DNA of 64,000 nucleotides from Thermoproteota archaeon (GCA_037917675.1 JAVCBW010000051.1:30142-94141), one strand, 5' to 3'; positions 37,490 through 53,828 are shown, counted from the stretch's first letter. Program-made: numbers and translations. The notes: generated from the letters alone by a model not told the origin.

Positions 37490-38337
37490 GCTTCTCCCCT
37501 CAGGCTGGAGTTTACTCTAGTCAACAAGACTCTACAGCCTGAGCTTGCCCACTTCTCTCTAACCTCCTCAGCTACGCTGCTGCTGCACACAGCGTAGAGG
37601 CTTGGGCCGGTCCCTGAGACTCCAGCTGCTAGCGCTCCAAGCTCCATCGCCTTAAGCGCTGGCTTGAAGTCTATGCCTAGCAGAGCTGAGACAGCTAACC
37701 CATTTATCAGCGCTGCCTCCTGCCACTCTCCGCTCAAGGTGAGCTCATAGGCCTTCCTAAACACCTTACTAAGAGCTCTCATCTTCTCTACGCTTACGCT
37801 AGCGGTGTACAGCTTCCTCTCTGGCACAAGTATCACGACACTTCTCTCCTCAACATGCCAGCGGCTGACGACCTCCCCAGCCTTGTTGTCTGCTGCAACG
37901 AGCCCGCCTAAGAGGGATGCTGCCGAGTCGTCTAGAGCACCAGTCACTGAGACCTCTGCTCTAAGCTGGGCTTCAGCTGAGAGACTTAGCACATCATGGG
38001 GCCTAAGCTTCCTGCCTAGTGCAGCTGCAGTCGCCATGATGACAGCGTTGGCAGCTGCACTAGAGCTCTTAAGCCCTCTTGCAGGAGGTATCTCAGACCA
38101 GGTCTCTATGTGAGCTCCAGCATCATGCTCCCCTAGCCTCCTGAGTGTGAGCTTAGCTGCCTCGATCACTAGCCTCGTGCTCTCACCTGGTGTGCTGAGC
38201 AGCTTAGCTGAGAAGCTTCCACTTGTCAGCTCTACCCTAGCCTCAGTCTTGAGTCTCACTCCTAGTGCAGCTCCCTTCCAAGCTGGTATCGCGTTGACTA
38301 TGGTGACTGCCCCATAGGCTCTAGCTGCTGCTTTCAA
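37477..38337 (-). CDS. aroK: Archaeal (GHMP-type) shikimate kinase
   Basis: GAVTIVNAI, SEIP...GLKSSSAAANA, TGALDD, GVSGTGPS. Confidence 0.93.
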   Translation of the reverse strand: MKAAARAYGAVTIVNAIPAWKGAALGVRLKTEARVELTSGSFSAKLLSTPGESTRLVIEAAKLTLRRLGEHDAGAHIETWSEIPPARGLKSSSAAANAVIMATAAALGRKLRPHDVLSLSAEAQLRAEVSVTGALDDSAASLLGGLVAADNKAGEVVSRWHVEERSVVILVPERKLYTASVSVEKMRALSKVFRKAYELTLSGEWQEAALINGLAVSALLGIDFKPALKAMELGALAAGVSGTGPSLYAVCSSSVAEEVREKWASSGCRVLLTRVNSSLRGEAWTL

Positions 38338-39133
38338 GCTCAGCCACCACAGCCTTCATCATATCGTCTACTGGGGGCTCGAAGCCAGTCCATATTCTGA
38401 AAGCTTCTGCCCCCTGAGCTACAAGCACCTCCACTCCAGGTATGGGCTTAGCTCCAGCTGCCTCAGCCTCTCTAAGCAGCGGTGTCTTCAGGGGCCTATA
38501 GACCAGATCGAGTACAGCCTGATGCCTTCTCAGGAGGCTTCTGTCGACTAGAGTACTCTCCCCATCCATGCCGACTGGTGTAGCATTGACCACGAGGTCA
38601 GCTCTAGGGATGTGCTCTCTGAGCGACCTCCTACTGAGCTCAGCTGGTGTAGCTGGCATCCTCTCAGCTAGCCTCCTAGCTCTGGCTAGCGTCCTATTGA
38701 GGACGGTGACCTCAGCTCCAAGCTCAGCTAGGCAGTAGACTACAGCCTTAGCTGCCCCACCAGCTCCGAGAACTACAGCTCTCCTAGCTTCCACACCAGC
38801 CTTCTCTAGCGCCACCCTTACGCCAGCTACATCAGTATTATATCCAGCGAGCCTGCCTCCTACATTGACTACAGTATTGACTGCTCCAATAATCTCGGCT
38901 TCCCTGCTGACTTCATCCAAGTACTCCAGAATAGCTTCCTTCAGAGGCATGGTGACGTTGAACCCCCCCACATCTGGTCTTCTAAGCGTCTCGGCTGCTT
39001 CAGGCAGCTGGCTAGCCCTGACTTCGATGGCCTCATAGCGGTAAGGTAGCTTAAGCTTCCTGAAAGCTGTGTTATGCATTAGAGGCGACAGGGAGTGGGA
39101 TACTGGGCTACCTATCAGATAGAAGGTCTTCAA
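38321..39133 (-). CDS. aroE: Shikimate dehydrogenase
   Basis: HSLSP.MHN, NVTMP.K, GAVNT, NTD, GAGGAA, NATPVG, DLVY.P. Confidence 0.96.
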   Translation of the reverse strand: MKTFYLIGSPVSHSLSPLMHNTAFRKLKLPYRYEAIEVRASQLPEAAETLRRPDVGGFNVTMPLKEAILEYLDEVSREAEIIGAVNTVVNVGGRLAGYNTDVAGVRVALEKAGVEARRAVVLGAGGAAKAVVYCLAELGAEVTVLNRTLARARRLAERMPATPAELSRRSLREHIPRADLVVNATPVGMDGESTLVDRSLLRRHQAVLDLVYRPLKTPLLREAEAAGAKPIPGVEVLVAQGAEAFRIWTGFEPPVDDMMKAVVAELESSS

Positions 39134-39800
39134 GTCTAGTAGCCTCCACTAGCTCTATTAGCTCGCTTGCTGTGAGCTGCCCTTCAGCTGTAGCCTCACC
39201 TGGAAGGCACACATACGTGTATGGTGCTCCAGCCATGAGGCATAGGACACGTGACAGCACTCCCATGCTACCTGAGCAAAATGCTACCAGGTTCCCAGCT
39301 ATCCTCCTATATAGCCTGAGCACTCCTAGGTTATCAGCCAACCTACTTGCTTTCGGGACTAACTTAGCAGCCCAAGCTATCTCAAGCCCCCTTCTAGCTA
39401 TGCTCTCGAGTAAGCTAGCTTCTGGAGTGTAGCTGCTGTGCCATGAGGCAACTAGCAGAACTCCTTCAGTCTTCGCTTTGTCAGCTAGCTCCCTCCTCCT
39501 CTCAAGTGTATGGAGCTCTATGTCAACTGCCATAGGCTTAGCTTCAATCAGCTTCAATAGGAGCCTAGCTCTCTCATCCTCTGTCACGCTCCTTGCTCCC
39601 CCCTCAAGCCAGCTCCTATATGTCAAAAGGATGTTATCATATGATCTTGCAGCATCTCTCGCTGCCAGCTCAGCCTCACTGGGGGGCATGTAGTCAAGCC
39701 TCACCTCCACTAGAAGTGGAGTGTATTTCTGAGCTTCCTGAACTCTAGCTAGAGCATCCTCTCTGCTCTCAGCTCTAACTGAGACGCAGATCCTCCTCAA
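39108..39800 (-). CDS. aroD: Type I 3-dehydroquinate dehydratase
   Basis: VEVRLDY, TYR...EGG, DIEL, SWH...TP, K, G.LSR, TA.GQ. Confidence 0.9.
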   Translation of the reverse strand: MRRICVSVRAESREDALARVQEAQKYTPLLVEVRLDYMPPSEAELAARDAARSYDNILLTYRSWLEGGARSVTEDERARLLLKLIEAKPMAVDIELHTLERRRELADKAKTEGVLLVASWHSSYTPEASLLESIARRGLEIAWAAKLVPKASRLADNLGVLRLYRRIAGNLVAFCSGSMGVLSRVLCLMAGAPYTYVCLPGEATAEGQLTASELIELVEATRLEDLLSDR

Positions 39801-39804
39801 GCGA

Positions 39805-40839
39805 TCACTTCTCTAGGAGGAACTCTTCTACCGCCATTCCAGCATGCCTGGCCTTAGCCTTAGGCTTGTGGACTAGCACTTTACTACCTTCCTCTAGCTC
39901 CCTGACTGAGACAGCTTCTCCACTAGGGCTCACGAGACACACCGTCTCAGCATCCTGTAGGAGCACTGTGCCAGCTTCACCTGAGGCCTCAGCTTCAACA
40001 AGCAGCATAGACCTCTTCTCTATCTTCACCCTCCCTACTATAGCTCTCCTAGCTCTCCCTCTCCAGCTCACTGCGAGCACGCTACTCCCTCCCTTGAGCT
40101 CAGAGAGGTATCTTGTCTCATGCAGAGAGGAGAGGATGTAGCTGTGGACTGCTCCAGCATTGACTCGAAATGGCCTAGGCTCTATGAATGGGTTCTCTAG
40201 AGTCTCGCTGTGGACTAGGAAGAGGAGTGAGGCTTTGCTTCCAACCAGCATGCCCTCCCCCCTGGAGAGGAGTAGAGCTGTGTCTATGCATGCTCTGTCT
40301 CCCAGCCCTGTCTCCTGGACACAGGTGACCTCAGCCTCCTCAAGCTTGAGGAACCCTTCAGCATGGCTCCTCAGCTGTCTGAGTGATTCCCTAAGCTCTC
40401 CCACCGACTCTGGAGCCAGAACTATGGCGTCAACCCCCCTCTCAAGAGCTGAAAGCAGCGAGATAGCGTCTCTCATGTCTCTGGCTTCAGCATAGACCTC
40501 ACACTTACCTGCTGCTGCTGCAATTATGTTCTCAGCTGGAACTACCCTCCAGCTCTCTGCCTCAATGAGCAGGGCTTTAGCTCTAGTGCAGGCTTCAGCA
40601 GCCTCCTCTATGTCTGTACTGCTCTCTACCCTGGCTTTGACCACGTCTCCTATACTGCCTAGCTCAGCTAGCCTCAGGTCTCCCCCCTCTGGTGCTATCA
40701 GAGTTACCTTAGGCTTGAAGCCTACTGCTTTCTCTGAGAGCAGGGCCTTGACCCCTAGCCTAGCAGCCTCCTCAGCCAGCTTCTCTGCTTCAGCCTCGCT
40801 TTCAGGCAGCTTAACTATCACCCTGCTCTCTAAGCTCAC
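39805..40839 (-). CDS. 3-dehydroquinate synthase II (AroB')
   Basis: W.VVP.ENIIA, LERGVD, GDRACIDT, GEGMLVGS, RPFRVNAGAVH, YLSEL, GRVKIE.R, LQDAETV, ARH.G. Confidence 0.94.
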   Translation of the reverse strand: MSLESRVIVKLPESEAEAEKLAEEAARLGVKALLSEKAVGFKPKVTLIAPEGGDLRLAELGSIGDVVKARVESSTDIEEAAEACTRAKALLIEAESWRVVPAENIIAAAAGKCEVYAEARDMRDAISLLSALERGVDAIVLAPESVGELRESLRQLRSHAEGFLKLEEAEVTCVQETGLGDRACIDTALLLSRGEGMLVGSKASLLFLVHSETLENPFIEPRPFRVNAGAVHSYILSSLHETRYLSELKGGSSVLAVSWRGRARRAIVGRVKIEKRSMLLVEAEASGEAGTVLLQDAETVCLVSPSGEAVSVRELEEGSKVLVHKPKAKARHAGMAVEEFLLEK

Positions 40840-41626
40840 TTCTAAGCACCTCCATAGCCTCCTCTGCTGAAGCACCATCCAGGACTATCATCCTAATGCA
40901 CTTCAGCATGAGCTCAGGCCTACTGTGCTGGAACACGTTTCTGCCTAGAGCTACTCCAGCTGCCCCAGCCTCCATAGCTCCCTCAACCATCTTGAAGACC
41001 TGAAGCTCACTCTCAGCCTTAGGGCCTCCAGCTATCACGACTGGGACAGGGCACCCCTCTACTACACGCCTGAAGCTCTCTGGGCTCCCTGTATATGCTG
41101 TCTTAACTACGTCTGCTCCGAGCTCAGCTCCAAGCCTAGCTGCATGAGCTACGAGCTCAGGGCTATGTGGGTCTCTTATGCTCTTTCCTCTAGGATACAT
41201 CATGGCTAGCAGAGGCACCCCTAGGCTCTCACACTCCTCAGCGATAGCAGCTAGCTTCATGAGCATCTCAGGCTCCCTCTCTGCCCCCAGGTTCACGTGG
41301 ACTGAGACGCCGTCTGCACCTAGCCTGAGAGCCTCTAGCACGCTTGCAACCCTGACCTTCCAGTTTGGGCTTGGGCCTACACTGGTGCTAGCTGAAGCAT
41401 GGACTATCAGCCCTAGCCTAGGGGTGTATGAGATGGCTTTCAGCACACCTTTATGCACAACTACTGCTGTAGCCCCTCCCTCCTCAGCCTTCCTGATGGC
41501 ATCATATATCTTAACGAGCCCCTTTATCGGCCCAGATGTGACACCGTGGTCCATTGGGACACAAACCATCTTACCTGCCTCAGTCAGCCTAGACAGCCTG
41601 ACCCTCTTACCACTCACCCTAACCAC
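40811..41626 (-). CDS. 2-amino-3,7-dideoxy-D-threo-hept-6-ulosonate synthase (AroA', DhnA-type aldolase)
   Basis: PMDHG, HKG, H.SAST, GAD.VS.HVN.G, MYPRG, ELGAD.VKT.YTG, AGGPK, GRNVFQ; adjacent to AroB'. Confidence 0.9.
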   Translation of the reverse strand: MVRVSGKRVRLSRLTEAGKMVCVPMDHGVTSGPIKGLVKIYDAIRKAEEGGATAVVVHKGVLKAISYTPRLGLIVHASASTSVGPSPNWKVRVASVLEALRLGADGVSVHVNLGAEREPEMLMKLAAIAEECESLGVPLLAMMYPRGKSIRDPHSPELVAHAARLGAELGADVVKTAYTGSPESFRRVVEGCPVPVVIAGGPKAESELQVFKMVEGAMEAGAAGVALGRNVFQHSRPELMLKCIRMIVLDGASAEEAMEVLRSELREQGDS

Positions 41627-42663
41627 CCCACTTCAGCTGCTAGCTCAGCTAGCAGAAGCGCGCAGCCAGCTGCTCCTCTTATAGTGTTGTGGACTAGCAG
41701 AGTGAAGAGGAGGCTGTTTGCTGTAGCTCCCCTCCTCACCCTACCTACTGTAATACTCATGCCAGGTGGGCTGCCAGCATCCCTGTCAAGCCTAGGCTGA
41801 GGCCTATCCACGTCCTCTAAGACTATAATGGGCTGGTCTGGTGCAGTTGGCAGCTTGAGCTCCTGTGGAAGCCCCCTAAACTCCCTGAGCAGGTCCATGG
41901 CATGATCTGGGCTGATAGGCTCTTCTGTCTCGACGAACACGCATTCAAGGTGCCCGTCTAGCACAGGAACCCTGTTACAGGCAGCCTCAACTCTGATGTC
42001 AGCTTCCTTGACTCTACTTCCAGCAAGCTCTCCAAGCACCTTTCTAGATTCCCTAGCTACCTTCTCCTCCTCACCTGAAATGTATGGTATAGTGTTGTCT
42101 ATGAGGTCTAGTGAGGAGACTCCAGGATAGCCTGCTCCAGACGCAGCTTGGAGCGTAGCTACCCTAACAGCCTTTATCCTATACTCTCTGGCAATAGGCT
42201 TTAGAGCCATGACAAGCCCTACTGTAGTGCAGTTTGGGTCAGTAGCTATGAGGCCACTCCAACCTCTAAGCTCTCTTTGAGCCTTGATGAGCTCAAGGTG
42301 CTCTGGATTGACTTCTGGGACTACCAAGGGGACATCATGGTCCATTCTATGGGAGCTCGCATTGCTAAACACAGCACACCCTGCTTCAGCAGCATGCTCC
42401 TCAGCTTCCCCAGCTACATCAGATGGTAGCGCAGAGAAGACGACATCGTAGCCTCCACTGAAGCTGCTGAGGCTAAGCACCTCCAAGTCAGCTAGCTCAG
42501 CTGGAGGCCTGCCATGCCACTTGACATCATGATACCTGAGTCCAGCTGTCTTCCCAGCGTATACTGCCTCAAGCTTAAACCATGGGTGCCCTGCTAGCAG
42601 CTCAGCGAACCTCTGCCCCACGATCCCTGTCCCACCTAGCAGCGCTGCCGAGAACCTACTCAA
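41614..42663 (-). CDS. asd: Aspartate-semialdehyde dehydrogenase
   Basis: GGTGIVGQ, FSALP, SNASSHRM, PEVN, PNCTT, QAASGAG, RVPV.DGH, HNTIRGAAG. Confidence 0.96.
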   Translation of the reverse strand: MSRFSAALLGGTGIVGQRFAELLAGHPWFKLEAVYAGKTAGLRYHDVKWHGRPPAELADLEVLSLSSFSGGYDVVFSALPSDVAGEAEEHAAEAGCAVFSNASSHRMDHDVPLVVPEVNPEHLELIKAQRELRGWSGLIATDPNCTTVGLVMALKPIAREYRIKAVRVATLQAASGAGYPGVSSLDLIDNTIPYISGEEEKVARESRKVLGELAGSRVKEADIRVEAACNRVPVLDGHLECVFVETEEPISPDHAMDLLREFRGLPQELKLPTAPDQPIIVLEDVDRPQPRLDRDAGSPPGMSITVGRVRRGATANSLLFTLLVHNTIRGAAGCALLLAELAAEVGWLG

Positions 42664-43897
42664 CCACATCACCTCCAAGCTTACTCCTCAGAATCTCCAT
42701 GACGCTCTCCTTTGAGCTCCATGGAACCAGTACTCTGACTGAAGAGTGTATTGTGAACAGCCCATAGATGTTCACTCCAGCAGACGAGATGGGCTCAACG
42801 ACCATCTCTATTATCCCAGGAGTTGTCTCAAGGCTTCTTCCCCTCACTGAGATCAGAGCTAGGCTGCCTAAGCTTGAGATAGCTTTAGCCTCACCCTTCT
42901 CCACGAGCTCATGTGTCTTTCTCAAAGCCTCCTCTGAGCTGCCTTCGAAGTAGAGGATTGCAGCAGTCTCCATGCTTGTTGCAGCTAGCGTCCTACACCC
43001 TATCTCTGAGAGCAGCTGCTCAGCTAGTTTCACAAGCCTGCTTCCATCCTTCCCTACCACTGTGAGCATTGAGAGAGGCTTGCTGTAGGCTGAGACCTCC
43101 AGTAGAGGGCCTCCATTGACTACTGTACCCCCCTCTGTCAGAGGCTCTCTGAAGCCTACCACTCTGATCCTCATCCAGCTTGGCATATACTTGAGAGCTT
43201 TAGGGGCTATCACCTTAGCTCCACTTGAAGCCAGGAGCTCAGCTTCACTGAGCTCTATGCTGTCCAGGACTCTAGCTCCATGAACCGCCTTCGGATCTGC
43301 TGTGTAAATGCCCTCGACATCCTTTACGAGCACGACCTCCTTACACCCAAGGAACCTAGCTAGGAGAACAGCTGTGATGTCTCCTCCACCCCTCCCCATT
43401 GTGGTGACCTTCCCGCTCTTAGAGACCCCTAGGAAACCGCATATGACCGGTGTATTCCCTGATTCAAGCAGGGGAAGCATCTTCTCCTTGACTGCTCTGC
43501 TACACTCCTCTAGGATAGGCTCTGCATCACCATGCTTCTCATCTGTGAGTATCGGCCACCACTCTGACTTGGGATCAACTAGCACTGATCTGACTCCAAG
43601 TGACCTTAGAGCTGAGTGGAGGAGCCTAGCTGCCAGCTCCTCTCCTGAAGCTAGGACGTAGTCCATCTCCTCTCTGAGCTCGGTGGAGGCAGCCTCCTTA
43701 AACATCTCAGCAAGCACGTCTGTGTGCCCTTTCATGGCTGAGACGACGACAGCAACCCTCCAGCCAGCGTCGATTTCGCGTTTAATGACGTCCGCTGCTT
43801 TCTTGAAGGCCTTTGGCCCAGTTAAAACAGACCCACCAAACTTTACGACAAGAACTCGGCTAGAAGAGGCCTCCGGCGATGTAAACTCGACCGCCTC
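42656..43897 (-). CDS. lysC: Aspartate kinase; no canonical in-frame start before the KFGG motif (putative +1 frameshift entry)
   Basis: Frame open from 43897: ..RVLVVKFGGSVL...VVVSAMKGHTD, SGE, GRGGGDITA, KDVEGIYTADP, ACT-like C-terminus. The track start at 43735 lies downstream of the N-terminal KFGG motif. Confidence 0.93.
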   Translation of the reverse strand, partial: EAVEFTSPEASSSRVLVVKFGGSVLTGPKAFKKAADVIKREIDAGWRVAVVVSAMKGHTDVLAEMFKEAASTELREEMDYVLASGEELAARLLHSALRSLGVRSVLVDPKSEWWPILTDEKHGDAEPILEECSRAVKEKMLPLLESGNTPVICGFLGVSKSGKVTTMGRGGGDITAVLLARFLGCKEVVLVKDVEGIYTADPKAVHGARVLDSIELSEAELLASSGAKVIAPKALKYMPSWMRIRVVGFREPLTEGGTVVNGGPLLEVSAYSKPLSMLTVVGKDGSRLVKLAEQLLSEIGCRTLAATSMETAAILYFEGSSEEALRKTHELVEKGEAKAISSLGSLALISVRGRSLETTPGIIEMVVEPISSAGVNIYGLFTIHSSVRVLVPWSSKESVMEILRSKLGGDVVE

Positions 43898-43901
43898 TCA
43901 C
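43860..43901 (-). promoter_or_regulatory. Leader ORF MRGGRVYIAGGLF* (Tyr and Phe codons) overlapping lysC, which lies in its +1 frame
   Basis: TATA at about 43937-43944, GGTG SD, then GTG AGA GGC GGT CGA GTT TAC ATC GCC GGA GGC CTC TTC TAG. Confidence 0.65.
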
Positions 43902-44045
43902 CTAGAACACCAAGCTAATGGGTCGAGGTTGCCCGTATTTAAGCATTTCCCCCAGCTATTGCATGCCTCATCAAAACCTGCCCCTAGCCTGATACAGCTA
44001 CGTAACGCATCTGCAGGCTTTACCTGCTGACCTAGCTGCTCTATC

Positions 44046-44651
44046 TCACGCCACCCTCTTAAAGTAGATTATTCTCTGAGCTGCTGTTATAAGTGAGCCT
44101 ACTGATGCTATGAAGACCATGGCTGGAAGCATGATCTTGAGCTCTAGGAGGTATAGGAGCATCCCAGCAGCCATACACGTGATCTTCTCCTTCCTCTCGA
44201 AGAGCCCTACTCCCATCGCTGTCTTCTTCAGCTCAGCCTCTCCCCTAGCCCTCACATAGCTTGGAGATATCAGAGAGAATAGAGCCAGCACACCAAGCCA
44301 CCCTGGTATGTATCCTCCTACTGTCAGGGCTAGCAGCAGCATGAACTCTATACACCTATCAGTGTAGTGGTCTAGGAGTGTTCCAAATGGGCTTTCAAGG
44401 CCAGCTGCCCTAGCTATGCTCCCATCCACCACATCTAGGAAGACTGCTACGAGATATACCAGTAGCCCTGCTAGCATCCTGCCTGCTGCAATAAGGGCTG
44501 AGGCTATAGCCGCCACACCCATAGAGGATATCGTCACCTGATTTGGTGTCAGCCCTAGCTTAGCTAGCTTAGCTCCAAGAGGAGCTGTAGCCTTCTCATA
44601 TAGCTCCCTGATACGAGGCTTAGTCAAGCTAACCCACCCTTCTAACTCCAT
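44046..44651 (-). CDS. CDP-alcohol phosphatidyltransferase (archaetidylinositol-phosphate synthase-like)
   Basis: TPNQVT, D..DG..AR......FG..LD...DR, SYVRARGE, G..ER.E. Confidence 0.9.
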   Translation of the reverse strand: MELEGWVSLTKPRIRELYEKATAPLGAKLAKLGLTPNQVTISSMGVAAIASALIAAGRMLAGLLVYLVAVFLDVVDGSIARAAGLESPFGTLLDHYTDRCIEFMLLLALTVGGYIPGWLGVLALFSLISPSYVRARGEAELKKTAMGVGLFERKEKITCMAAGMLLYLLELKIMLPAMVFIASVGSLITAAQRIIYFKRVA

Positions 44652-45546
44652 CCAGGATGGCTTCAGCCCTCTCCTCTACTCCCTGACGTGGTAGAGGGAA
44701 CTCTGGGCCACAGTACTCAACCATGTAGGATGCTGCAGCAGAAGCATAGGCAGCTGCTGTCACAGGGTCTTCTCCCCTCAGCATGTAATAGGCCATGGCG
44801 CCAGCATAGACGTCGCCACATCCAGTTGGATCTACTTCACGAGTCCTATATGCTGGTATGTAGTATACCCCTCTGTCTAAAGCTATGTAAGATCCTCTCT
44901 CTGCTACAGTGACTACACCAACTTCAGCTCCAAGCTCATGTATCTTCGCTGCAGCCTCTCTGGGGCTGTAGCCTGGGAACAGGACCTCAGCCTCATGTTC
45001 ATTTGGCTTAAAGACACTCGAAGCCACTATGGCTTCATATGACTCCCTAGTAGCTACCCTGACGACCTTACCTCCATCTACCTTCCTCACGAGCCCCTGT
45101 GGATCTACTAGGACTGGCTTACCCTCTGCTTCTCTCCTAACCTTCAGTATGAGGTCTAAGCCCACCTCGCTGAGGATAGGGCCTATCACAAACGCTTCAG
45201 CTGAGAGCAAGCTTTCAGGGAGGTCTTCTGGGTATATCCTTCCAGCTACCCCGAGAACTCTAAGCTCTCTGTCTCTCATGTCCCTGCTGAGGTATCTTAT
45301 GTGGAAGCCTCCTGTCTCTCCTGAGGGCAGGAGGTGAGCCTCTACACCATAGCTCTCTAGGAGCCTCCTGGCTTCAGCTTCCCACTCCCTCCCCACTCTG
45401 CTGAGGAGAGAAGCTTCTCCTCCTAGCTTGGCATATGCTAGAGCTGAGTTTGTGCTGCAGCCAGACAGCACTCTGCCCTGGCTTCTTGCGTATGGTGTCT
45501 CTATTATGTCGAAAACGAGGTTGCCTACTGCAGCTAGCCTAGCCAT
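44629..45546 (-). CDS. PfkB/ribokinase-family carbohydrate kinase
   Basis: VGNLVFD, DPQG, KPNEHEA, VT..ERG, DPTGCGDVY. Confidence 0.9.
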   Translation of the reverse strand: MARLAAVGNLVFDIIETPYARSQGRVLSGCSTNSALAYAKLGGEASLLSRVGREWEAEARRLLESYGVEAHLLPSGETGGFHIRYLSRDMRDRELRVLGVAGRIYPEDLPESLLSAEAFVIGPILSEVGLDLILKVRREAEGKPVLVDPQGLVRKVDGGKVVRVATRESYEAIVASSVFKPNEHEAEVLFPGYSPREAAAKIHELGAEVGVVTVAERGSYIALDRGVYYIPAYRTREVDPTGCGDVYAGAMAYYMLRGEDPVTAAAYASAAASYMVEYCGPEFPLPRQGVEERAEAILDGVRRVG

Positions 45547-45661
45547 CTAGGTTCCTCCCAGTATCATGTGCCTTACTGCTGTGTGATTAAAGAGATTTGT
45601 GCTCTTGGTGAGGCTGGGATAAAATTTATATATTTCCGGGCATATGCTAATATGGTGGTGT

Positions 45662-46003
45662 ATGATGTGGAGATGGGGGCGAAAGAGAGCTGGAGGTAGA
45701 GGAGCAGGAGGAGGCAGAGGGGGCTACGGAGGGCCACCTCGAGGCCCATGGCCAGGAAGAGGGCCATTCAGCAACCTACCACCATGGCAGAGGCCAGGAT
45801 GGCTCATGAGATGGGGAATGATGCCGCCAGCAGCTCTACCAGCACCGACACAACCTCAAGTAGCTCCACCAGCCATGCCACCTGCTGCAATGCAGGCAAT
45901 GCCACCAGAAGCTGAGGTAGCCTATCTAGAAGAGCAGAAGAAAGCGCTTGAGGCTGCACTAAAGGAGATAAGCAAGAGGATAAGTGAGCTTAAGGGGAAG
46001 TAG
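45662..46003 (+). CDS. Gly/Arg/Pro-rich protein with C-terminal coiled coil (DUF5320-like)
   Basis: WPGRGPFSNLPPWQRPGW motif; EVAYLEEQKKALE..L.EI.KRI.EL; strong TATA at 45621-45635. Confidence 0.7.
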   Translation: MMWRWGRKRAGGRGAGGGRGGYGGPPRGPWPGRGPFSNLPPWQRPGWLMRWGMMPPAALPAPTQPQVAPPAMPPAAMQAMPPEAEVAYLEEQKKALEAALKEISKRISELKGK

Positions 46004-46010
46004 CTCTAGG

Positions 46011-46907
46011 CTAGCTAGAGTAGCTTATAAGCTGCAGCTCTCGCACAATGCTTCCACCAACCTCCACAGTAGCCTTCACTGGAACAGGAGCATCTCCACT
46101 CACCCAGTACTTCACAACAGCACCCTCCCCTCTCACCTCCAGAATCCTACACTGAAAGACTCCCGCAGGAACCTTTATCCTCTCAGAGCCAGCTTCCCTC
46201 AGCTCTCCTGTGGAGAGGACTATCTCAGGTGAGTTAGACGATAGCTGCTGGCAGCTCAGCTCTCTCCTCTCTCCTCCAACCTCAACAACAGCCCTAACAC
46301 AGCTCTTATCCTCCTCGTCAAGCCACACTTCATAGGTGAGCCTCCTCCCCCGGACTTCAGATGTGATCTTGAGAAGTATGCAGTCTCTACCATCAAGCTT
46401 GCTCTTAGAGGCATCGATCGTCATAGTGGCCTCCACACTCCCTCCTCCAGACCTCAGGATGAGCTTATACGTGCAGTTCCTGAACTTGCTGAGCTGGAAT
46501 ACCCTGGCAAAAGCAGCCTCTGGATGCTTCTCCACAGCTTCCTCAGCTGTCTGGCTTGCTGTAGGCAGCTGGATCCACCCCCAGTAAAATAGCCCAACTA
46601 TAGTCACCAGCATGCTAGCTAGCACGACAGCCATTGCTACTCTCAGCGGTGGCCTTGCCCTAGCTCTTGGTGCTGAGGGGAGCCTAGCTCTAGGCTTCGC
46701 AGCTCCTCCAAGCCTCTCTACCCCAGTGGGCTCAGGAGCCATGGGCTCCATGGGCCTCTCAACCTCCCTGCTCAGCATGCTCAGCTCCTTCTCATACTTC
46801 TCCTTCAGCCTCTCATACTCTTCCTCACTTATCTTCCCCTCTATCAGAGCTTTCTCTATAGTCTCTAGCCTCTTCCTTATCCACCTCCTCATATCCTCCC
46901 TGCTCAA
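46011..46907 (-). CDS. Membrane-anchored hypothetical protein (SHOCT-like N-terminus, one TM, C-domain with I.VPAG.F.C)
   Basis: GKISEEEYERLKEK; TM at aa ~90-110; ERIKVPAGVFQC...KYW. Confidence 0.65.
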   Translation of the reverse strand: MSREDMRRWIRKRLETIEKALIEGKISEEEYERLKEKYEKELSMLSREVERPMEPMAPEPTGVERLGGAAKPRARLPSAPRARARPPLRVAMAVVLASMLVTIVGLFYWGWIQLPTASQTAEEAVEKHPEAAFARVFQLSKFRNCTYKLILRSGGGSVEATMTIDASKSKLDGRDCILLKITSEVRGRRLTYEVWLDEEDKSCVRAVVEVGGERRELSCQQLSSNSPEIVLSTGELREAGSERIKVPAGVFQCRILEVRGEGAVVKYWVSGDAPVPVKATVEVGGSIVRELQLISYSS

Positions 46908-46967
46908 CCAACCCCCATGCTGCCTGTGTACTCTCGTTTAAAAGTTGAGCTGGCTTCACATGGTAGC

Positions 46968-48728
46968 ATGAGGTCTGAGCTAGCTGAAGCTGCTACAGGT
47001 AGAAGGAAGCCTGATATCACTCTAGCTAACGTGAGCTTGCTCAACGTGCTCACCGAGGAGATCGAGGAGAACACTTCGATCTCAGCCTACAGGGGCAGGA
47101 TAGTCTATGTTGGGAGGAGCCCGCCTAAAGCCAGGCTTGAAGTAGACTGTGAGGGTGCTTATGCCATACCTGGCCTGATAGACTCTCACATCCACATAGA
47201 GAGCTCAATGCTCTCAGTAAGGAGGTTTGCTGAAGCTGTCCTGCCTCACGGGACCACAGCAGTCTTCACAGACCCACATGAGATAGCCAATGTCCTAGGG
47301 CTGAGCGGGGTAAAGCTTATCTTAGAGGAGTCTGAGAGCATCCCACTGAAAGTCTATGTCGAAGTCCCGTCGTGCGTGCCTGCTGCTCCAGGCTTAGAGA
47401 CCTATGGCGCAGAGCTTACTCCAAGAGAGGTCGCGAGAGCTCTGAGCTGGAAGGGTGTGGTCGGGCTAGCTGAGGTCATGAGCTACCCTGCTGTCATAGC
47501 TGGGGAGCCAGGCATCCACGAGAAGATAAGAGCAGCTCTCTCAGCGAACCTAGCTGTAGAAGGACATGCCCCATCCCTTACTGGAAGAGAGCTAGCAGCA
47601 TACATCGCCTCAGGCGTGCAGAGCGACCACGAGTGTACAAGTGGAGGAGAGGCTCTAGAGAAGGCTAGGAGAGGCATGTGGATAGAGGCTAGGGAGGGCT
47701 CAACCATGAGGAACCTAGCCAAACTGCTTCCTGAGCTAGCTAAGCACCCTGCCTCACTTGAGTACTGCACTCTAGCATCAGATGACCGAGAGGTGCTAGA
47801 CCTCCTTACCAAGGGACACATGGACCACGTAGTCAACAGAGCCATAGAGCTCGGGCTAGACCCAGTTAAAGCTGTTAAGCTTGCTTCACTCAACCCAGCT
47901 AGGAGATTCAGGCTAGACCACGAGATAGGGTGCATAGCTCCAGGGAGGAGAGCAGACATACTCCTGTGTATCAGCCTCAGCCCCCTTAGGGTAGAGGGAG
48001 TGTATGCTGACGGTAAGCTGGTAGCTAAGTCAGGTAAGCTGGTAGCTGAGATCCCAGAGTTCAAGCACCCAAGCTATGCTCTCAACACCATCAGGGCAAA
48101 GCTCCCAGCTCCAGAGCTCATAGCAGTCAAAGCAGGCGTAAGCAGAGGAGCATGCAAGGTCAGGGTCATAGAGGTCAAGGAGGGTGAAGCATACACCAGA
48201 ATGCTGGTCAAGGAGCTTAAGGTCGAGGAGGGGCTGGTGCAGCCGAGCATAGAGGAGGACGTGCTGCTCGCCACAGTGGTGGAGAGGCATAGGGCTTCAG
48301 GAAGCTTCTCAGTAGGGTTCGTCTCAGGCTTCAAGCTTGAGCGTGGGGCCATAGCAAGCAGCATAGGCCACGACTCCCACAACCTCACCTCAGTAGGAGC
48401 AGACTCAGCTAGCATATACACTGCTCTGAAGGCGGTAGCAGAGATGCAGGGAGGCCTAGCTGTAGCTGAGGGCAGCAGGGTTCTAGCTAGGCTGCAGCTC
48501 AGGCTAGCAGGCCTGATGTCCACGGACCCTCCCAGAAAGGTAGCTGATGGCCTCAGGAGGGTGCTTGAGGCAGCTAGGGAGCTTGGGTGCATGATGGACA
48601 ACCCCTATATGCCACTCAGCTTCCTCCCGCTCCCAGTCATACCTGAAGCTAGGCTGACAGACAAGGGCTTAGTAGACGCGAGAGAGCTGAGAATAGTTCC
48701 AGTGGTCATAGAGGAGCTTCCCAGCTGA
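46968..48728 (+). CDS. ade: Adenine deaminase
   Basis: PGLIDSHIHIESS, DPHEIANV.G, PSCVP, LAEVM, EGHAP, SDHEC, REGS, SDD, VERH, HDSHN, LPVIP..RLTD.G. Confidence 0.94.
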   Translation: MRSELAEAATGRRKPDITLANVSLLNVLTEEIEENTSISAYRGRIVYVGRSPPKARLEVDCEGAYAIPGLIDSHIHIESSMLSVRRFAEAVLPHGTTAVFTDPHEIANVLGLSGVKLILEESESIPLKVYVEVPSCVPAAPGLETYGAELTPREVARALSWKGVVGLAEVMSYPAVIAGEPGIHEKIRAALSANLAVEGHAPSLTGRELAAYIASGVQSDHECTSGGEALEKARRGMWIEAREGSTMRNLAKLLPELAKHPASLEYCTLASDDREVLDLLTKGHMDHVVNRAIELGLDPVKAVKLASLNPARRFRLDHEIGCIAPGRRADILLCISLSPLRVEGVYADGKLVAKSGKLVAEIPEFKHPSYALNTIRAKLPAPELIAVKAGVSRGACKVRVIEVKEGEAYTRMLVKELKVEEGLVQPSIEEDVLLATVVERHRASGSFSVGFVSGFKLERGAIASSIGHDSHNLTSVGADSASIYTALKAVAEMQGGLAVAEGSRVLARLQLRLAGLMSTDPPRKVADGLRRVLEAARELGCMMDNPYMPLSFLPLPVIPEARLTDKGLVDARELRIVPVVIEELPS

Positions 48729-48740
48729 GGAGGGAAGTAG

Positions 48741-49904
48741 CTAGAGCCAGCTTGGCTTGAAGCCCAGCTTCTCCTGGACCTCAAACACCCTCGGAAGCCT
48801 CTCCCTAGCCTCCCTAAGCTTCCTCTCATGCTCCTCTAGGAACCTCACCAGCCTCTCTGCAATCCTCTGCTTGCACTCTCCGCAGAGGACTGAGCCACTT
48901 GTGCAGTCATCAAATGTCTTCTTCAAGATGCTGTCTTCGAAGTGGAAGAGCAGGAACATGTATGGCACACAGATGTCAGGCTGCCCTCCCTTCTCCCTCT
49001 GCTCCCTAGCTGTAGCCCTCCCTCCCGTGAAGGCTTCCATGAGCTTCCTCCTAGCCTCATCAGGGCTATCGCCTAGGAAAATCGCTGTTTCAGGCTTGCT
49101 GCTCGACATCTTCGTCCCAGGCCCCTGGAGCCCAGCCATCATCTTCACGTATATCGATGAGGGCTTCACCATGCTGAACTTAGGCGCCAGGTCATGGCAT
49201 AGCCTGATATACGGGTCCTGATCTATCCCAACTGGGACAAGCACAGGCTTAGGCCCACCCATCTCCTCGCTCTGAGGATACATTATGTCAGCTGCATCGA
49301 TAAACGGGAAGAACACTTTACCTATGGTGTCAGACTCCCCCTCCTCACCTCTATACCTGAAGCCAAACATGGAGCCGAGGTGGCTTGCAGTTATCTTAGC
49401 TGCGAACATTATCGCTAAGTTCTTGACAGTCTCATTAGACCACTGGCTGTATATCATCACCCTCCTCCTATCAGTGAGGTCTATTCCGAGAGCCATGTAG
49501 TTCAGTATGTACTCCTCGACAGCATACCTCTCTATGTCACCTAAGCTAAGCCCTCTGATGACGTAGGCCTCTATGTCTGATATCGGAATGATGACCTTAA
49601 CTCCACGCCTATAGTACCATGCCATCAAGTCAGCTACCAGCTTGTGTCCAAAGTGGAACCTCCCTGAGGGCATCATACCAGTCAGGATCACATACTCCTC
49701 CCCTCTCTCCTCAGCCTCAAGTATCCTCTCAAACCCCCTGTGAGCGAATATCAGCCCTCTCTCAAAGAGCCTGTTCCTCTCTCTCATCCTCTCAATGAGC
49801 TCTCTAGTCATCTCCTGAACTCCGAACTGCCTTATGACCTCTCTGTAGTCCCTGTACTCCAGCTTAAACTCCCAAGGCGATATCGCTACACCACCCTCTG
49901 CCAG
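48741..49904 (-). CDS. trpS: Tryptophanyl-tRNA synthetase; true N-terminus lies upstream of ATG 49811 and has no ATG/GTG/TTG in frame
   Basis: TG.MPSG.FHFGH, VPVGIDQDP, KMSSS, AFTGGR, CGECK. Upstream in-frame ISPWE...DY..VI.QFG is the usual archaeal TrpRS N-terminus. Only CTG 49904 is available in frame. Confidence 0.95.
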   Translation of the reverse strand: MAEGGVAISPWEFKLEYRDYREVIRQFGVQEMTRELIERMRERNRLFERGLIFAHRGFERILEAEERGEEYVILTGMMPSGRFHFGHKLVADLMAWYYRRGVKVIIPISDIEAYVIRGLSLGDIERYAVEEYILNYMALGIDLTDRRRVMIYSQWSNETVKNLAIMFAAKITASHLGSMFGFRYRGEEGESDTIGKVFFPFIDAADIMYPQSEEMGGPKPVLVPVGIDQDPYIRLCHDLAPKFSMVKPSSIYVKMMAGLQGPGTKMSSSKPETAIFLGDSPDEARRKLMEAFTGGRATAREQREKGGQPDICVPYMFLLFHFEDSILKKTFDDCTSGSVLCGECKQRIAERLVRFLEEHERKLREARERLPRVFEVQEKLGFKPSWL

Positions 49905-49917
49905 CCCAACAGACCAC
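49864..49917 (-). promoter_or_regulatory. Putative leader ORF MVCWAGRGWCSDIALGV* (two Trp codons); trpS is in its +1 frame
   Basis: GTG 49917 lies about 24 nt below TATA 49941-49947, the leaderless spacing seen at moaD. Confidence 0.45.
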
Positions 49918-50056
49918 CTCTAACCGCCCTAGCCATGGAGATATAAACGTTCCGCTACCACGAGCTGCTGACACCTACAGCTCCAGTGAGAACCGTTCCC
50001 GAACCCTAGGCTGCAGCTTGCTCTCAGCAGCATCGCATGCACTTGAGATAAAGCTA

Positions 50057-50326
50057 CTAACCTGCTGGCTTAATCAGCTCAGCTAGCTCATCTAGCTTCA
50101 AGCTCAGCGATATAACATCCCTCACTCCACTGACATGCTCAGTTGAGACTACAGCCTTAGGCCTCCTGAGAAGCTTCCTCATGCCAGCTGCCTGAGCAGT
50201 CTCGCTGCTAAGCTGAACTATGAGCCCATCTACCCTCCACCCTCTGATCTCAAGATCCACAACCCTACCTACCCTAGCTCCATCAGAGGTCACGACATCC
50301 TTCTTTAACACCTCACTAGCCCTCAA
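50057..50326 (-). CDS. PRC-barrel domain protein
   Basis: ASEVL.K.V...DG..VGRV.DLEI...V.GL.V; V.GV.DVI. Confidence 0.82.
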   Translation of the reverse strand: MRASEVLKKDVVTSDGARVGRVVDLEIRGWRVDGLIVQLSSETAQAAGMRKLLRRPKAVVSTEHVSGVRDVISLSLKLDELAELIKPAG

Positions 50327-50550
50327 GTAGCACCCCCATCAATAAGGCTAAGTGCCTTTAAAGGCTGCTAGACATGCTATAAGCTGCCTGACTTCAGCAC
50401 ACCCTACCTGGCCTCTGGAGAGCTGTCAGGCATAGGATGAGGAAGGTTTCTCAGTAGTCGTGTGCGGGAGAAGGCTGCTGAAGGAGATGCCTCCTCTAGG
50501 GAGGCAGCTATGAGAGCAAAGAGGCCCTAGAGCCTCTGCTATCTGAGGCT

Positions 50551-51669
50551 TCAGGGAGCCCATGCTAGCAGGTGCATATTCCCTATGTGAACGTTCTCCA
50601 AGCGCTTTTTCGCTACGTTATAGCACTCCTCAACCTGCCTTCTCGGCGTTATCGGCAGGTCTCTCATGTAGTAGTCTGGGTGGAAGACGAGCAGGCTATA
50701 GGGTATTTCTGGGCTCAGGCTTGCTATGAACTCTGCTATGTCAGCTACCTCCTCTGCGTCTACGTAAAATGGGACTAGCAGCGTTGTTGCAGTGAGGACT
50801 GGTAGACCTCTTCTGTCCTCATAGTACTTTCTGTATATCATCTCAAAGTTCTCATATGCTCTCCTGTTAGAGACACCACTTAACGCAAGCGACATGGCGG
50901 AGGTGTAGGCTTTCAGGTCGAACTTTACGTTCCCTCCACTCACATAGGATAGCTCAGCTGCCTTGTCAACTAGGCTTGAGTTGCCGCATCCATTCCACTC
51001 CCAGCATATCCTGACAACTCTGTCTTCACATTCCTCTAAGACCCGCTTAGACGCTTCTAGCGCAAATGGGAGGTGTGGCTCTGGGCTGCCTCCGAAGTAG
51101 CATATGCATGTTATCCTCCTGTCTTGCTTAACTGTAGCTATGAAGTCCTCCACCGTTATCCTCTTACCTTCACTAGTATACTTGTGGGAGGAGTTCTGAC
51201 AGAAGAGGCAGTTGAAGTTACAGCCATAGAAGAATACTGCCAGGTTGTAGTAGCCTGACTCGACTCCAGGCTTCACAGCATACTTAGGGTAGCCTGCTCC
51301 TGTGCCAGCTGGGCAGAACCATGCTGCACAGCAGTTTGTAGGGTGAGGATCCCTATAGACATATGCTACACCCACCTTAGGAGATGTAAGCTGGACAAGC
51401 TTCCCTCCTTCATTCCACCTCAGCCCACAGAACCCCATGTCTCCATCTCCCATCCTACACTCGTTGCTGCAGAGAGTACAGGTCAGCCCCCCTTCAGCTC
51501 TAGGAGGATGAGGTGGAAGCCCATATCTCTCTCTAACCTTAGCGTGAGCTTCCATTATGTAGGGCATGGCTTCATCTGGCTTCTCTCTTATACAGCTGCT
51601 ACACACCCTAAGTGTAGAAGATATGTCAGCTCCAGCTCTACCACAGACTCTACAAGACACCTCAGGCAA
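50551..51669 (-). CDS. Radical SAM protein (AmmeMemoRadiSam/PflA-related)
   Basis: C..CSNEC....G..GFCG.R, DPHPTNCC..WFCP, GCNFNCLFCQN, FGGSPEP, EWNG, KFDLKA, FHPDY. Confidence 0.88.
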   Translation of the reverse strand: MPEVSCRVCGRAGADISSTLRVCSSCIREKPDEAMPYIMEAHAKVRERYGLPPHPPRAEGGLTCTLCSNECRMGDGDMGFCGLRWNEGGKLVQLTSPKVGVAYVYRDPHPTNCCAAWFCPAGTGAGYPKYAVKPGVESGYYNLAVFFYGCNFNCLFCQNSSHKYTSEGKRITVEDFIATVKQDRRITCICYFGGSPEPHLPFALEASKRVLEECEDRVVRICWEWNGCGNSSLVDKAAELSYVSGGNVKFDLKAYTSAMSLALSGVSNRRAYENFEMIYRKYYEDRRGLPVLTATTLLVPFYVDAEEVADIAEFIASLSPEIPYSLLVFHPDYYMRDLPITPRRQVEECYNVAKKRLENVHIGNMHLLAWAP

Positions 51670-51994
51670 GCTACCACTAGGCTACAGCTACACCATAATG
51701 TTAAAATGTTTGCTGTTGTGCTCAACTGCAGCTTCTCTCCAGTAGCTTATTCAAGCTGGATCCCACAGCTAGGCTCCAGCCACACACCTGCCCTCTGGAG
51801 TAAAGAGCTCAGCTAGCTCTGCTTTTACCCAGAAGGCTGCTTTCACGGCTCCAATCCTACATCCTGTGTGTCCTCTCAGAGCTGGCTGAGCTCCCTCCTA
51901 GGAGCTAGAAGCTCCTAGTCTAATACTCACCTAGAGCTACATAGGCCTGTTAGGCTGCTGATGGCAACCTCAATGTTGCGCGCATGGAGCAAGT

Positions 51995-52032
51995 TGCATG
52001 TTTCACGACTGTTTCATGCACTAAGTTTATTA
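51995..52032 (+). promoter_or_regulatory. Inverted repeat TGCATG-N14-CATGCA with internal TGTTTCA direct repeat, directly upstream of a TATA-like box
   Basis: Seen at 51995-52020; TATA-like GTTTATTA at 52025-52032. Confidence 0.4.
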
Positions 52033-52052
52033 CCTGCCTTCTAAGAGGGCCT

Positions 52053-52103
52053 ATGCCTCTAGTGGAGGAGGTGAGTATGGGGGATCTAGTTTGGGTCTCC
52101 TAG
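52053..52103 (+). promoter_or_regulatory. Leader [19 protein letters not shown] (Trp codon); ParB/SerK-like gene is in its +1 frame
   Basis: ATG 52053 (leaderless position) or ATG 52077 (GGAGGAGGTGA SD); ...GGG GAT CTA GTT TGG GTC TCC TAG. Confidence 0.65.
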
Positions 52104-52548
52104 AAGGCCTCTAAAAGCCCTTTACTTCCTGTCTTCTGGCCTGTTTAAGGCGGCTGCTGCCATCGTTCCAGCGTCCATGTTGAAGCCCCATGAAATGACC
52201 ATCGAAAAGTGCCTCAAGAACATCAAGTCTCAGATTAGAGACGACGGCAGGCTCTACATGCCAGTCATCGTCGACAGGAGGTCCATGACGATACTAGACG
52301 GCCACCACAGGTATGCTGCCTTAACCCAGCTTGGAGCAAAGCTAGTCCCAGCTCTCCTAGTAGACTACAGGTGTCCTGAGCTGGAAGTGTACCCCAGGAG
52401 GGTAGGTGTGCCTGTAAGCAAGAGGATTGTACTAGAGTACAGTAGGAGAGGCCTCCTGCTTCCACCTAAGACGACACGCCACGTACTTCCAGTTGAGCCA
52501 CGTGAGGTATCAGTTCCTCTAAGAGACCTCATGAGGTGTAAGCTATGA
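52090..52548 (+). CDS. ParB/Srx-fold protein related to SerK/SbnI L-serine kinases (short form)
   Basis: [29 protein letters not shown]...[15 protein letters not shown]. Frame opens at 52090; first ATG is 52177, two codons before LKPHE. Confidence 0.75.
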
Positions 52549-53828
52549 TGCGTGTGACCCTAGATGTAGATGAGCTACCAAGAGCCTGGTATAACATCCA
52601 AGCTGAAGTCGATATCCCTCCTATGGTCACGCCTGATGGCAGAGAGGTTAAGGCAAGTGAGCTCGAAGTCATCTTTCCAAAGGAGTGTGTCAGACAGGAG
52701 TTCTCAAAGAGGCGGTACATACAGATTCCAGAGGAAGTCAGAGAGATGTACATCAGGATCGGCAGACCTACACCACTTTACAGGGCAGTTAGACTTGAGA
52801 GGAAGCTGAAGACGCCTGCTATAATCCTCTATAAGAGAGAGGATTTGAGCCCAACTGGAAGCCACAAGCTCAATACAGCTATACCACAAGCCTACTATGC
52901 TAGAGAGGAGGGTGTTGAAAAGCTGACAACTGAGACTGGAGCAGGCCAATGGGGATCAGCCTTAAGCTATGCTGGCGCCATGGCTGGAGTAGGAGTTCTA
53001 GTCTTCATGGTCAGAGTATCATACATGCAGAAGCCATATAGGAAGTATGTGATGATGCTATATGGAGCTGACGTAGTACCATCACCAAGCAGCCTAACTG
53101 ACGTAGGGAGAAGCCTCTTGAAACAGGACCCCAACCACACTGGTTCGCTTGGGATAGCTATAAGCGAGGCCATAGAGATGGCTGTGAAGAATGAGAAGGT
53201 GAAGTACTCGCTTGGCAGCGTGCTGAACCACGTGCTGCTACACCAGACAGTTATAGGCTTAGAGGTGCTAGAGCAGCTCAGGAAGCTAGACCTGAAGCCA
53301 GATGTGATGATAGGCTGTGTTGGAGGTGGAAGCAACTTTGCAGGCTTCTGCTATCCCACAGTAGGCAAAGTGCTCAGAGGGGAAATCAGTGATGTGAGGT
53401 TCATTGCAGTAGAGCCTACAGCATGTCCATCACTAACCCAGGGAGAATATAGGTACGACCACGGTGACACAGCTAAGATGACCCCTCTACTAAAGATGTA
53501 TACACTAGGATGCGACTTCGTCCCTCCACCAATACATGCTGGAGGCTTAAGATATCATGGTGCAGCTCCATCAGTATCACTGCTAAAGAGCAGAGGGGTA
53601 GTAGAGTCAGTAGCCTACCCACAGGATGAAGTGTTCAAGGCTGCAAAGCTATTCGCTGAGACAGAAGGCCTGATATCAGCTCCTGAGACAGCTCATGCTG
53701 TCAAGGCGGCAATAGATGAGGCTATCAAGGCAAAAGATGCAGGAGAGGAGAGGGTCATAGTATTCAACTTCTCTGGCCATGGCCTACTAGACCTAGAAGG
53801 ATACAAGGAGGTCCTAAACCTACCATAG
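52545..53828 (+). CDS. trpB: Tryptophan synthase beta chain, TrpB2 type
   Basis: [78 protein letters not shown]. Confidence 0.95.

Follow-up and report, generated by a model that had tools for sequence, protein, structure and literature searches.

The closest described counterpart of the element discussed here is the +1 frameshift site of bacterial prfB, which in the available portion of PMC3711429 is CTT_TGA_C with an upstream stimulator of Shine-Dalgarno (SD) type. A +1 slip in the P site, with a slowly decoded sense codon in the A site, is described for Gallant's hungry codons and for the yeast Ty1 site CUU_AGG_C in the accessible sections of PMC5009743, and those of PMC8211752 present antizyme as a metabolite-responsive +1 frameshift that is both sensor and effector of a feedback loop. 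A cassette of related design has been identified at two leaders in a stretch of 64,000 nucleotides (the window) from the genome of a Thermoproteota archaeon (GCA_037917675.1, JAVCBW010000051.1:30142-94141), one before the aspartate kinase gene (lysC) of an aromatic operon and the other before a SerK-like gene and trpB2. Comparison with 42 related genomes indicates that this is probably a prfB-like +1 programmed ribosomal frameshift cassette acting as an amino-acid sensor -- a hungry-codon switch, as the original prediction from the window had proposed. That is still the best-supported reading, the sensing being deduced from the match between codon and pathway.

With prfB the cassette shares a short frame-0 open reading frame (ORF), an SD-like sequence 3 nt 5' of a NUU_U slip site, a candidate slow codon in the A site and a main product encoded in +1. 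It differs in that this A-site codon is a sense codon, TGG or TAC, read by a tRNA, whereas the UGA of prfB is read by the gene's own product, release factor 2; in that its hosts are archaea and its targets biosynthetic operons and a tRNA synthetase, not release factors; and in that, in one archaeal genus, the +1 product is a mere connector that couples translation to the next gene. Hungry-codon and Ty1 shifts, in the source sections available, are laboratory phenomena or belong to a retrotransposon with a constitutively rare tRNA, and are not described there as switches of biosynthesis genes. Antizyme is polyamine-sensing and eukaryotic and shifts at a stop codon, whereas no conserved codon precedes the stops of the cassette leaders.

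Trp attenuation and T-boxes resemble the cassette in tying aromatic genes and a synthetase to charged tRNA at a regulatory codon in a leader. Classical attenuators carry tandem regulatory codons; the leaders here are ORFs of 8-13 codons with one Trp or Tyr codon, that of the regulated amino acid. The conserved alternative hairpins and terminator of attenuation were not found, the genera have no common sequence downstream of the sensor codon, and the cassette lacks a terminator/antiterminator or T-box; its output would be a change of frame and not transcription read-through. Rfam, at gathering scores, gave 0 matches in the whole 64-kb window, so no T-box is present, and ARAGORN reported nothing there.

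For archaea, the 2021 review (PMC8211752), as far as its available text goes, gives the demonstrated -1 shift in fucA1 of Saccharolobus solfataricus as the sole report of programmed frameshifting in a gene of archaeal cells; it differs from the cassette in being a -1 shift, on A-AAA-AAT, in one gene and with its regulatory purpose unexplained. Within the same limits of the sources, the 2016 and 2021 recoding reviews (PMC5009743, PMC8211752) also list for cellular archaeal genes a suggested frameshift in magnesium chelatase, which is a -1 frameshift cluster in PMC3711429, and further candidates that are proposed and unconfirmed; the sole +1 archaeal case in those reviews is that of a haloarchaeal virus. 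The literature covered, including the available text of PMC5009743, PMC8211752, PMC3711429 and PMC13759103, holds no Trp- or Tyr-sensing +1 frameshift, though the supplementary clusters of PMC3711429 could hold such genes.

The two leaders and their common cassette

The evidence throughout is computational and comes from sequence comparison. The genome that carries the window (G000) is a 1.78-Mb draft in 62 contigs, and its sister species is designated G001; with G000, the comparison set of 42 related genomes makes 43 in the phylum, 40 of them in the class (composed, according to the record titles, of Thermoproteota/Crenarchaeota metagenome-assembled genomes, MAGs) and 3 outside it. The genera of the relatives are labelled g2, g4, g5 and so on, and their loci and genomes are numbered with the prefixes L and G. 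Coordinates of the features are collected in Table 1.

Both of the short leader ORFs named in the original prediction exist, one opening with GTG and the other with ATG and both closed by TAG, and both main ORFs of G000 lie in +1 relative to them. As judged from the orthologous leaders of other genera, the cassette comprises a start codon, 0-2 further codons, a hexamer (GGGGAT, GGTGAC, GGTGAT or GGTGGT, and GGCGGT at lysC), a 3-nt spacer, a NUU_U slip codon and a sensor codon. The start codon has a good SD sequence or a nearby TATA box, and the slip codon is GTT, CTT or TTT, followed by T, in every cassette. The 3' end of the G000 16S rRNA, on contig C60, reads ...CTGGATCACCTCC; by hand count, GGGGATCTAG pairs with this tail at 9 of 10 positions and GGCGGTCGAG, which is the hexamer, spacer and next base at lysC, at 8 of 10. 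An rRNA-complementary, SD-like hexamer lies 3 nt before the slip codon in every cassette, as expected of a stimulator of prfB type with predicted pairing, and the conserved CTAG is part of this complement and incidentally puts a TAG in the +1 frame. The conserved stimulator would be the hexamer 3 nt 5' of NUU_U and not a hairpin or a pair-back helix.

A 6-bp hairpin with compensatory pairs had been put forward as common to the two leaders. Against shuffled sequences the folds gave z values of +0.59, +0.63 and -1.53, the hairpin is absent from the orthologous leaders of other genera, and at lysC the sole G001 change in the stem breaks a pair. The accompanying suggestion of a downstream block pairing back to AGGT found no support, and the proposed NTC-TYC-TAG ending is not kept in orthologs; what orthologous leaders have preserved is the cognate codon and the +1 offset. 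The likeness of the two G000 leaders is itself not due to chance: the 1.78-Mb genome contains AGGCCTCTNNNAGCC at 4 places, and the two leaders account for 2 of these. Also common to the two is a block AGGCCTCT-NNN-AGCC, a pattern found 4 times genome-wide (AGGCCTCT alone is 7-fold over-represented), which is kept in G001, does not have the same frame in both leaders and is missing from cassettes outside the genus. Its role may be that of a stimulator peculiar to this genus; alternatively, the lysC leader may have arisen as a copy of the SerK-like leader, with the block as a remnant. The TTG inside GTTTGG was considered as a start for the main ORF and ruled out, being in the +2 frame.

In the Tyr version, a TAG lies directly upstream of the lysC leader ORF in the same frame. 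The aspartate kinase frame is open from position 43897 and its first ATG, GTG or TTG is at residue 55, with the kinase domain beginning at residue 15; G001 likewise has no canonical start before the domain. A canonical start stands 2-8 codons ahead of the kinase domain at 20 of the 22 best orthologous loci from 41 related genomes; G000 and G001 are the two without. Columns that differ between these two species number 2 of 56 in the leader, 16 of 23 in the promoter spacer and 17 of 77 among the first coding columns. The three differences just past the slip site are all in third position and synonymous in +1, with two of the three non-synonymous in frame 0, so that the +1 peptide FTSPEASSSR is the same in both species and that of frame 0 has the replacements I to L and G to R. 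Such conservation of the leader, together with the synonymous +1 changes, excludes an assembly error there and indicates that +1 is the frame under protein-level selection. A scan of metagenomes for further lysC relatives returned only a contig identical to G001 in the leader.

For the Trp version, the original prediction had the first gene of a "trpB2 operon" lacking a start and standing in the +1 frame. Both features are present, but the gene is SerK-like, of the ParB fold, and not trpB2. Its first canonical start is residue 30, which falls within the part alignable with solved serine kinases, beginning at residue 25/26; as predicted, then, neither this ORF nor the aspartate kinase of G000 and G001 has a canonical start before its N-terminal motif. 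The codon that follows GTT fits the pathway at each leader: it is TAC where the last genes of the operon encode an aminotransferase and prephenate dehydrogenase, and TGG upstream of the SerK-like gene and trpB2. The 15-mer of the Trp cassette core is identical in most of the 40 class genomes and in 18 archaeal records of a species-genome collection; trpB2 was not detected in the sister species G001. An 11-bp hairpin with the slip codon GUU in its loop can be drawn at 52077-52101 (+) in G000 only, and is not kept in other genera.

These comparisons bear on the possibility that the break is removed at the level of the nucleic acid, through assembly or sequencing error, RNA editing, transcriptional slippage or a small spliced intron. 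G000 is a draft of 62 contigs, and its trpS resembles a 1-nt indel relative to G001 (see below). The same frames recur, however, in independent assemblies of most of the 40 class genomes and in the 18 species-collection records; the T run is just 3 long, Rfam finds nothing, and the one helix-bulge arrangement that could be drawn by hand around the lysC leader takes out 42 nt, a length divisible by three. An explanation of this kind is very improbable. Hardly any likelier is a shift at some other point, either at the stop codon of the leader in the manner of antizyme or as read-through of the TAG in +1: the TCC-TAG and TTC-TAG endings in G000 would suit the former, and an ATG found in the +1 frame before the TAG in some g4 genomes the latter, but the codon before the frame-0 stop varies among orthologs (GAG, GAC, CGA, CTA, CTC, CTG, CCT, CCC), and in G000 and several other genomes no +1-frame start exists between the preceding stop and the TAG.

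Connector frames and occurrence in relatives

The strongest evidence for what appears to be +1 translation comes from genus g2, which is without the SerK-like gene at this place and has the cassette directly before trpB2 at 20 loci. At all 20 the +1 frame is open from the cassette for 30-48 codons and ends on the trpB2 start codon, which the stop of this connector overlaps as ATGA, ATGCTGA or GTGCTGA (offset +1 or +4). By sequence the 20 connectors form 16 clusters, with no conservation of the encoded peptides; canonical starts occur inside them at varying positions, and one has none. With one representative per cluster, 576 codons per frame contain 0 stops in +1, 54 in frame 0 and 31 in +2, the naive probability of 0 connector stops being ~7e-20 for loci that are not fully independent. 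Since the connectors are open and not conserved, selection evidently keeps open a frame that can be entered only at the cassette, and the only evident role of the connector would be to carry ribosomes to the trpB2 start. In the window, the SerK-like ORF takes the place of the connector, with the same ATGA overlap with trpB2.

The cassette recurs at 13 SerK-like loci in five genera, in 10 of which a TAG closes the +1 frame directly before TTT. It is found as well at 16 of the 30 trpS loci examined, all in genus g2, at 4 further trpS loci of genus g5 and one paralogue of the tryptophanyl-tRNA synthetase (TrpRS), and before trpE-trpG in G006. The TrpRS of G028 and that of G030 have no canonical +1-frame start before the conserved PWEV..EEFG block; the trpS search gave one match in G028 and none in the 72%-complete assembly of G030. 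At all of the Trp-gene cassettes found (SerK-like-trpB2, trpB2, trpS and trpE) the sensor is UGG, and at the aro/Tyr operon it is UAC.

How specific the motif is was gauged with several pattern searches. In G000, a degenerate motif open to any sensor gave 66 matches on both strands; 3 of them pass a context filter, which asks for a start and a stop in frame 0, each no more than 25 codons away, and for a +1 ORF of 80 codons or longer; of these three, the two leaders alone are without a +1-frame start. Sensors other than TGG were sought in the whole of G000, in part of the loci collected and with a restricted CNAG spacer. The search within part of the collected loci yielded only the lysC sites of G000 and G001; the class-wide pattern for other sensors with the CNAG spacer gave 7 matches against 12 in the control, of which only the two lysC sites are real, the other five being intragenic. 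A pattern of start plus cassette matched 103 times across the 43 genomes against 33 for the reversed control, with 0 in the 3 genomes outside the class. Among 185,579 species, represented by one genome each, an 18-mer made of the start and GGGGATCTAGTTTGG occurs in 23 records: 18 are archaeal MAGs with a trpB2 or SerK-like context, and the remaining 5 are chance occurrences in unrelated organisms, with +1 ORFs of 1-27 codons (one cut by a contig end) and no coupling. Over 807 kb of loci, a sample biased in that many were chosen for containing the motif, 189 NUU_U sites pass the context filter; the 31 with the hexamer are all cassettes (29 TGG, 2 TAC), and the 158 without it have mixed sensors. 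A generic scan for long ORFs that lack an early start and have a short ORF overlapping them in the appropriate frame did not discriminate: 240 of 449 qualify by chance.

Some matches were set aside. Those of the form MVLGDVLW in genus g2 are not cassettes, their +1 ORFs being 4, 7 or 34 codons long, and neither are several matches internal to genes. Loci L164 and L165 (G031, G037) have a cassette-like leader, MMIGDSVW..., with GGGGAT-TCT-GTT-TGG and a TATA-like box nearby; its +1 ORF is only 5-11 codons long, and the leader sits 164 nt before a gene starting MAFTR(I/V)S.... At L131 (G035, contig C42) the exact cassette occurs twice, 6.2 kb apart, the second copy being cut by the contig end. 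In genus g4, L180 (G017, contig C141) is a divergent second TrpRS-like gene with a cassette of its own (MAGGGRVWPP and stop, GGTGGT-CGC-GTT-TGG), and the main trpS of that genus has none. Just upstream of the tyrS frame in genus g2 (L188, L194, L196, L199, L207, L208) there is a conserved ...ACTGACCTGAGCTGAGGCCC..., which is not a frameshift cassette.

Given the frames, the cassette geometry, its conservation, its restriction to Trp and aromatic genes and the selection for an open +1 frame, the slip itself, the pairing with rRNA and the response to amino-acid supply are envisaged as follows. Ribosomes would initiate at the leader ATG or GTG in frame 0 and, after 2-5 codons, hold NUU in the P site with U next, while GGKGRY and the spacer pair with the 16S tail only 3 nt away. 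The A site would then contain the sensor codon, UGG at Trp genes or UAC at the aro/Tyr operon. With ample cognate charged tRNA the sensor would be read, a stop reached 1-7 codons later and nothing made downstream; with charged tRNA scarce, the ribosome would pause and the P-site tRNA slip from NUU to UUU (+1), so that aspartate kinase, the SerK-like protein, TrpRS or TrpE would be translated. The slip in one genus would lead instead into the 30-48-codon connector that delivers ribosomes to the overlapping trpB2 start. At trpS a loop may result in which low TrpRS slows UGG decoding, more ribosomes shift and more TrpRS is made, a feedback of the kind seen in prfB. The slip site dictates that the sensor begin with U, which leaves Phe, Leu (UUR), Ser (UCN), Tyr, Cys, Trp or a stop; this requirement suits Trp, Tyr and Phe and could explain why the cassette is located at aromatic pathways. 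On balance, the comparisons lean towards a portable switch, programmed by a single codon, that would read the supply of charged tRNA-Trp or tRNA-Tyr in an archaeal class and turn on Trp and aromatic biosynthesis along with TrpRS.

The frames and their conservation would fit equally well a constitutive +1 shift of fixed efficiency, one that gives a set low expression or responds to temperature, tRNA modification or growth rate, with UGG or UAC as inherited context. The cassettes clearly share ancestry, so UGG could have been inherited, and the sensor has changed in one lineage only. This alternative is nonetheless unlikely: the cassette stands before four unrelated Trp-linked families, the codon at the aro/Tyr operon is one for Tyr, and no instance lies before unrelated genes in the whole of G000.

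Several points weigh against a sensory frameshift. Most of the motif searches demanded TGG, so the constancy of UGG is partly built in, and the Tyr version comes from a single genus (two genomes and one identical metagenome contig). None of 30 tyrS loci has the cassette, and 14 of the 30 trpS loci are without it. The re-pairing from GUU to UUU has a mismatch at the first position. Finally, canonical starts are available in many of the main ORFs: the GTG of the hexamer itself is an in-frame start 4 codons upstream in the 16 g2 trpS cassettes and at 3 SerK-like loci, and in 9 of the 10 SerK-like ORFs interrupted by TAG the linker that precedes the conserved domain contains canonical starts at scattered positions. 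These starts, and the fact that g2 trpB2 has an SD sequence and ATG of its own, speak for a regulatory leader peptide without any frameshift, in which a ribosome pausing at the Trp or Tyr codon remodels the mRNA and the downstream proteins start independently, at the GTG of the hexamer, at internal linker starts or at non-canonical codons. Such an arrangement gives no start for the aspartate kinase of G000 and G001, the SerK-like protein of G000 or the TrpRS of G028 and G030, and leaves the 0 stops in 576 +1 connector codons unexplained; the leader folds are within the range of shuffled sequences, with no hairpin conserved. It is judged quite improbable beside the hungry-codon switch. Only lysC (two genomes), the SerK-like gene of G000, the TrpRS of G028 and G030, and the connectors appear to depend strictly on a shift.

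Gene content of the window and the trpS locus

The lysC leader opens an 11-gene aromatic operon on the minus strand, running from 43885 down to 32932 as delimited with NCBIfam and by the packing of the ORFs, which overlap or sit close together (Table 1). Its genes cover the route from aspartate semialdehyde to chorismate and then the Tyr branch. The aspartate kinase has the domain pair of its family, PF00696 (E 1e-42) and ACT_7; it scores 248.8 against TIGR00657, over the cut-off of 208.7, and 322 bits against NF005159, under the cut-off of 379.

Table 1. Coordinates of the leader elements and genes in the window, counted from its first nucleotide
Feature	Position	Strand	Basis or remark
TATA-like box TTAAATA, ~34 nt upstream of the lysC leader start codon	43936..43942	-	Kept in G001; putative promoter
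lysC frame-0 leader ORF, GTG AGA GGC GGT CGA GTT TAC ... TAG (VRGGRVYIAGGLF and stop), 13 codons	43860..43901	-	Sequence
SD-like hexamer GGCGGT	43890..43895	-	Followed by 3-nt spacer CGA (43887-43889)
Candidate slip site GTT_T (P-site GTT 43884-43886 and T 43883)	43883..43886	-	Same place in relatives' GTT/CTT/TTT_T
Candidate sensor codon TAC (Tyr), frame 0	43881..43883	-	Kept in G001
Shared block AGGCCTCTTCTAGCC	43858..43872	-	Kept in G001
SD region GGAGGAGGTGAG for the leader ATG	52064..52075	+	Complementary to 16S tail
SerK-like-trpB2 frame-0 leader ORF, ATG GGG GAT CTA GTT TGG GTC TCC TAG (MGDLVWVS and stop), 8 codons	52077..52103	+	Sequence
Cassette core GGGGAT-CTA-GTT-TGG	52080..52094	+	Hexamer 52080-85, spacer 52086-88, slip codon 52089-91, sensor TGG 52092-94
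Shared block AGGCCTCTAAAAGCC	52105..52119	+	Genome-wide pattern search
Aspartate kinase (lysC) ORF, +1 frame (TTT ACA TCG ...)	42656..43885	-	Stop at 42656-42658
Remaining operon: asd, ADH synthase, dehydroquinate synthase II, aroD, aroE, archaeal shikimate kinase	32932..42678	-	NCBIfam
Operon 3' part: aroA, aroC, aminotransferase, prephenate dehydrogenase	within 32932..42678	-	NCBIfam
SerK-like (ParB/sulfiredoxin-fold) ORF, 152 codons, +1 frame	52090..52548	+	Opens directly after the cassette-internal TAG
trpB2 (TrpB-like pyridoxal-phosphate enzyme)	52545..53828	+	ATG overlapped by SerK-like TGA (ATGA)
trpS open frame (to 49919) and ATG-started 16-codon ORF (49936-49886)	48741..49936	-	ORF in -1 relation; not a cassette

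Residues 26-102 and 110-147 of the SerK-like protein match the free serine kinase of PDB entry 5x0b (E 1e-16), though at 152 residues it is shorter than the solved free serine kinases, which have 242. Against the full 244-position model NF053625 it scores 76.7 bits with a cut-off of 380, two stretches matching and the middle (model positions about 100 to 200) missing; because the score is far under the SerK cut-off and the middle of the model is absent, it is labelled SerK-like only. The product of trpB2 is assigned with 673 bits against NF009057, whose cut-off is 366. TrpB2 uses O-phosphoserine. As tblastn found no TrpE in the G000 assembly, Trp may be made in this organism from indole by trpB2.

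The original prediction saw the same frame logic, without the full element, at trpS (48741-49919), which lies between the two leader loci. There is indeed no in-frame start before the conserved N-terminus of the G000 gene, the single trpS match in the assembly, but the upstream ORF stands in -1 and not +1 relation, so that a -1 (or +2) change would be needed. In G001 the gene has one extra base (GAAGGGTGG against AGAGGTGG) and is continuous, starting with TTG. The -1 relation and the 1-nt indel relative to G001 led to its rejection as an instance of the cassette, and the break is read here as a probable indel or assembly error.

G000 has a pronounced oligonucleotide bias, with CTAG 2.4-fold and AGCT 4.5-fold above expectation and GATC and TCGA depleted. 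The frequency of CGA/TCG is 0.42 times that expected, and about 1 codon in 1000 is CGA.

Implications for archaeal amino-acid regulation

Post-transcriptional matching of amino-acid biosynthesis and synthetase levels to supply is largely unexplored ground in archaea. If the hungry-codon switch is real, the cassette would be an archaeal functional counterpart of attenuators and T-boxes with a working principle of its own. Archaea would thereby have their first +1 programmed frameshift in a cellular gene, and hungry-codon frameshifting a natural case in which it serves as a sensor. At ~20 nt and with interchangeable parts, it would be testable and could be reused as a reporter of tRNA charging. 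Gene callers would truncate or miss the genes under such control, among them that for the essential TrpRS.

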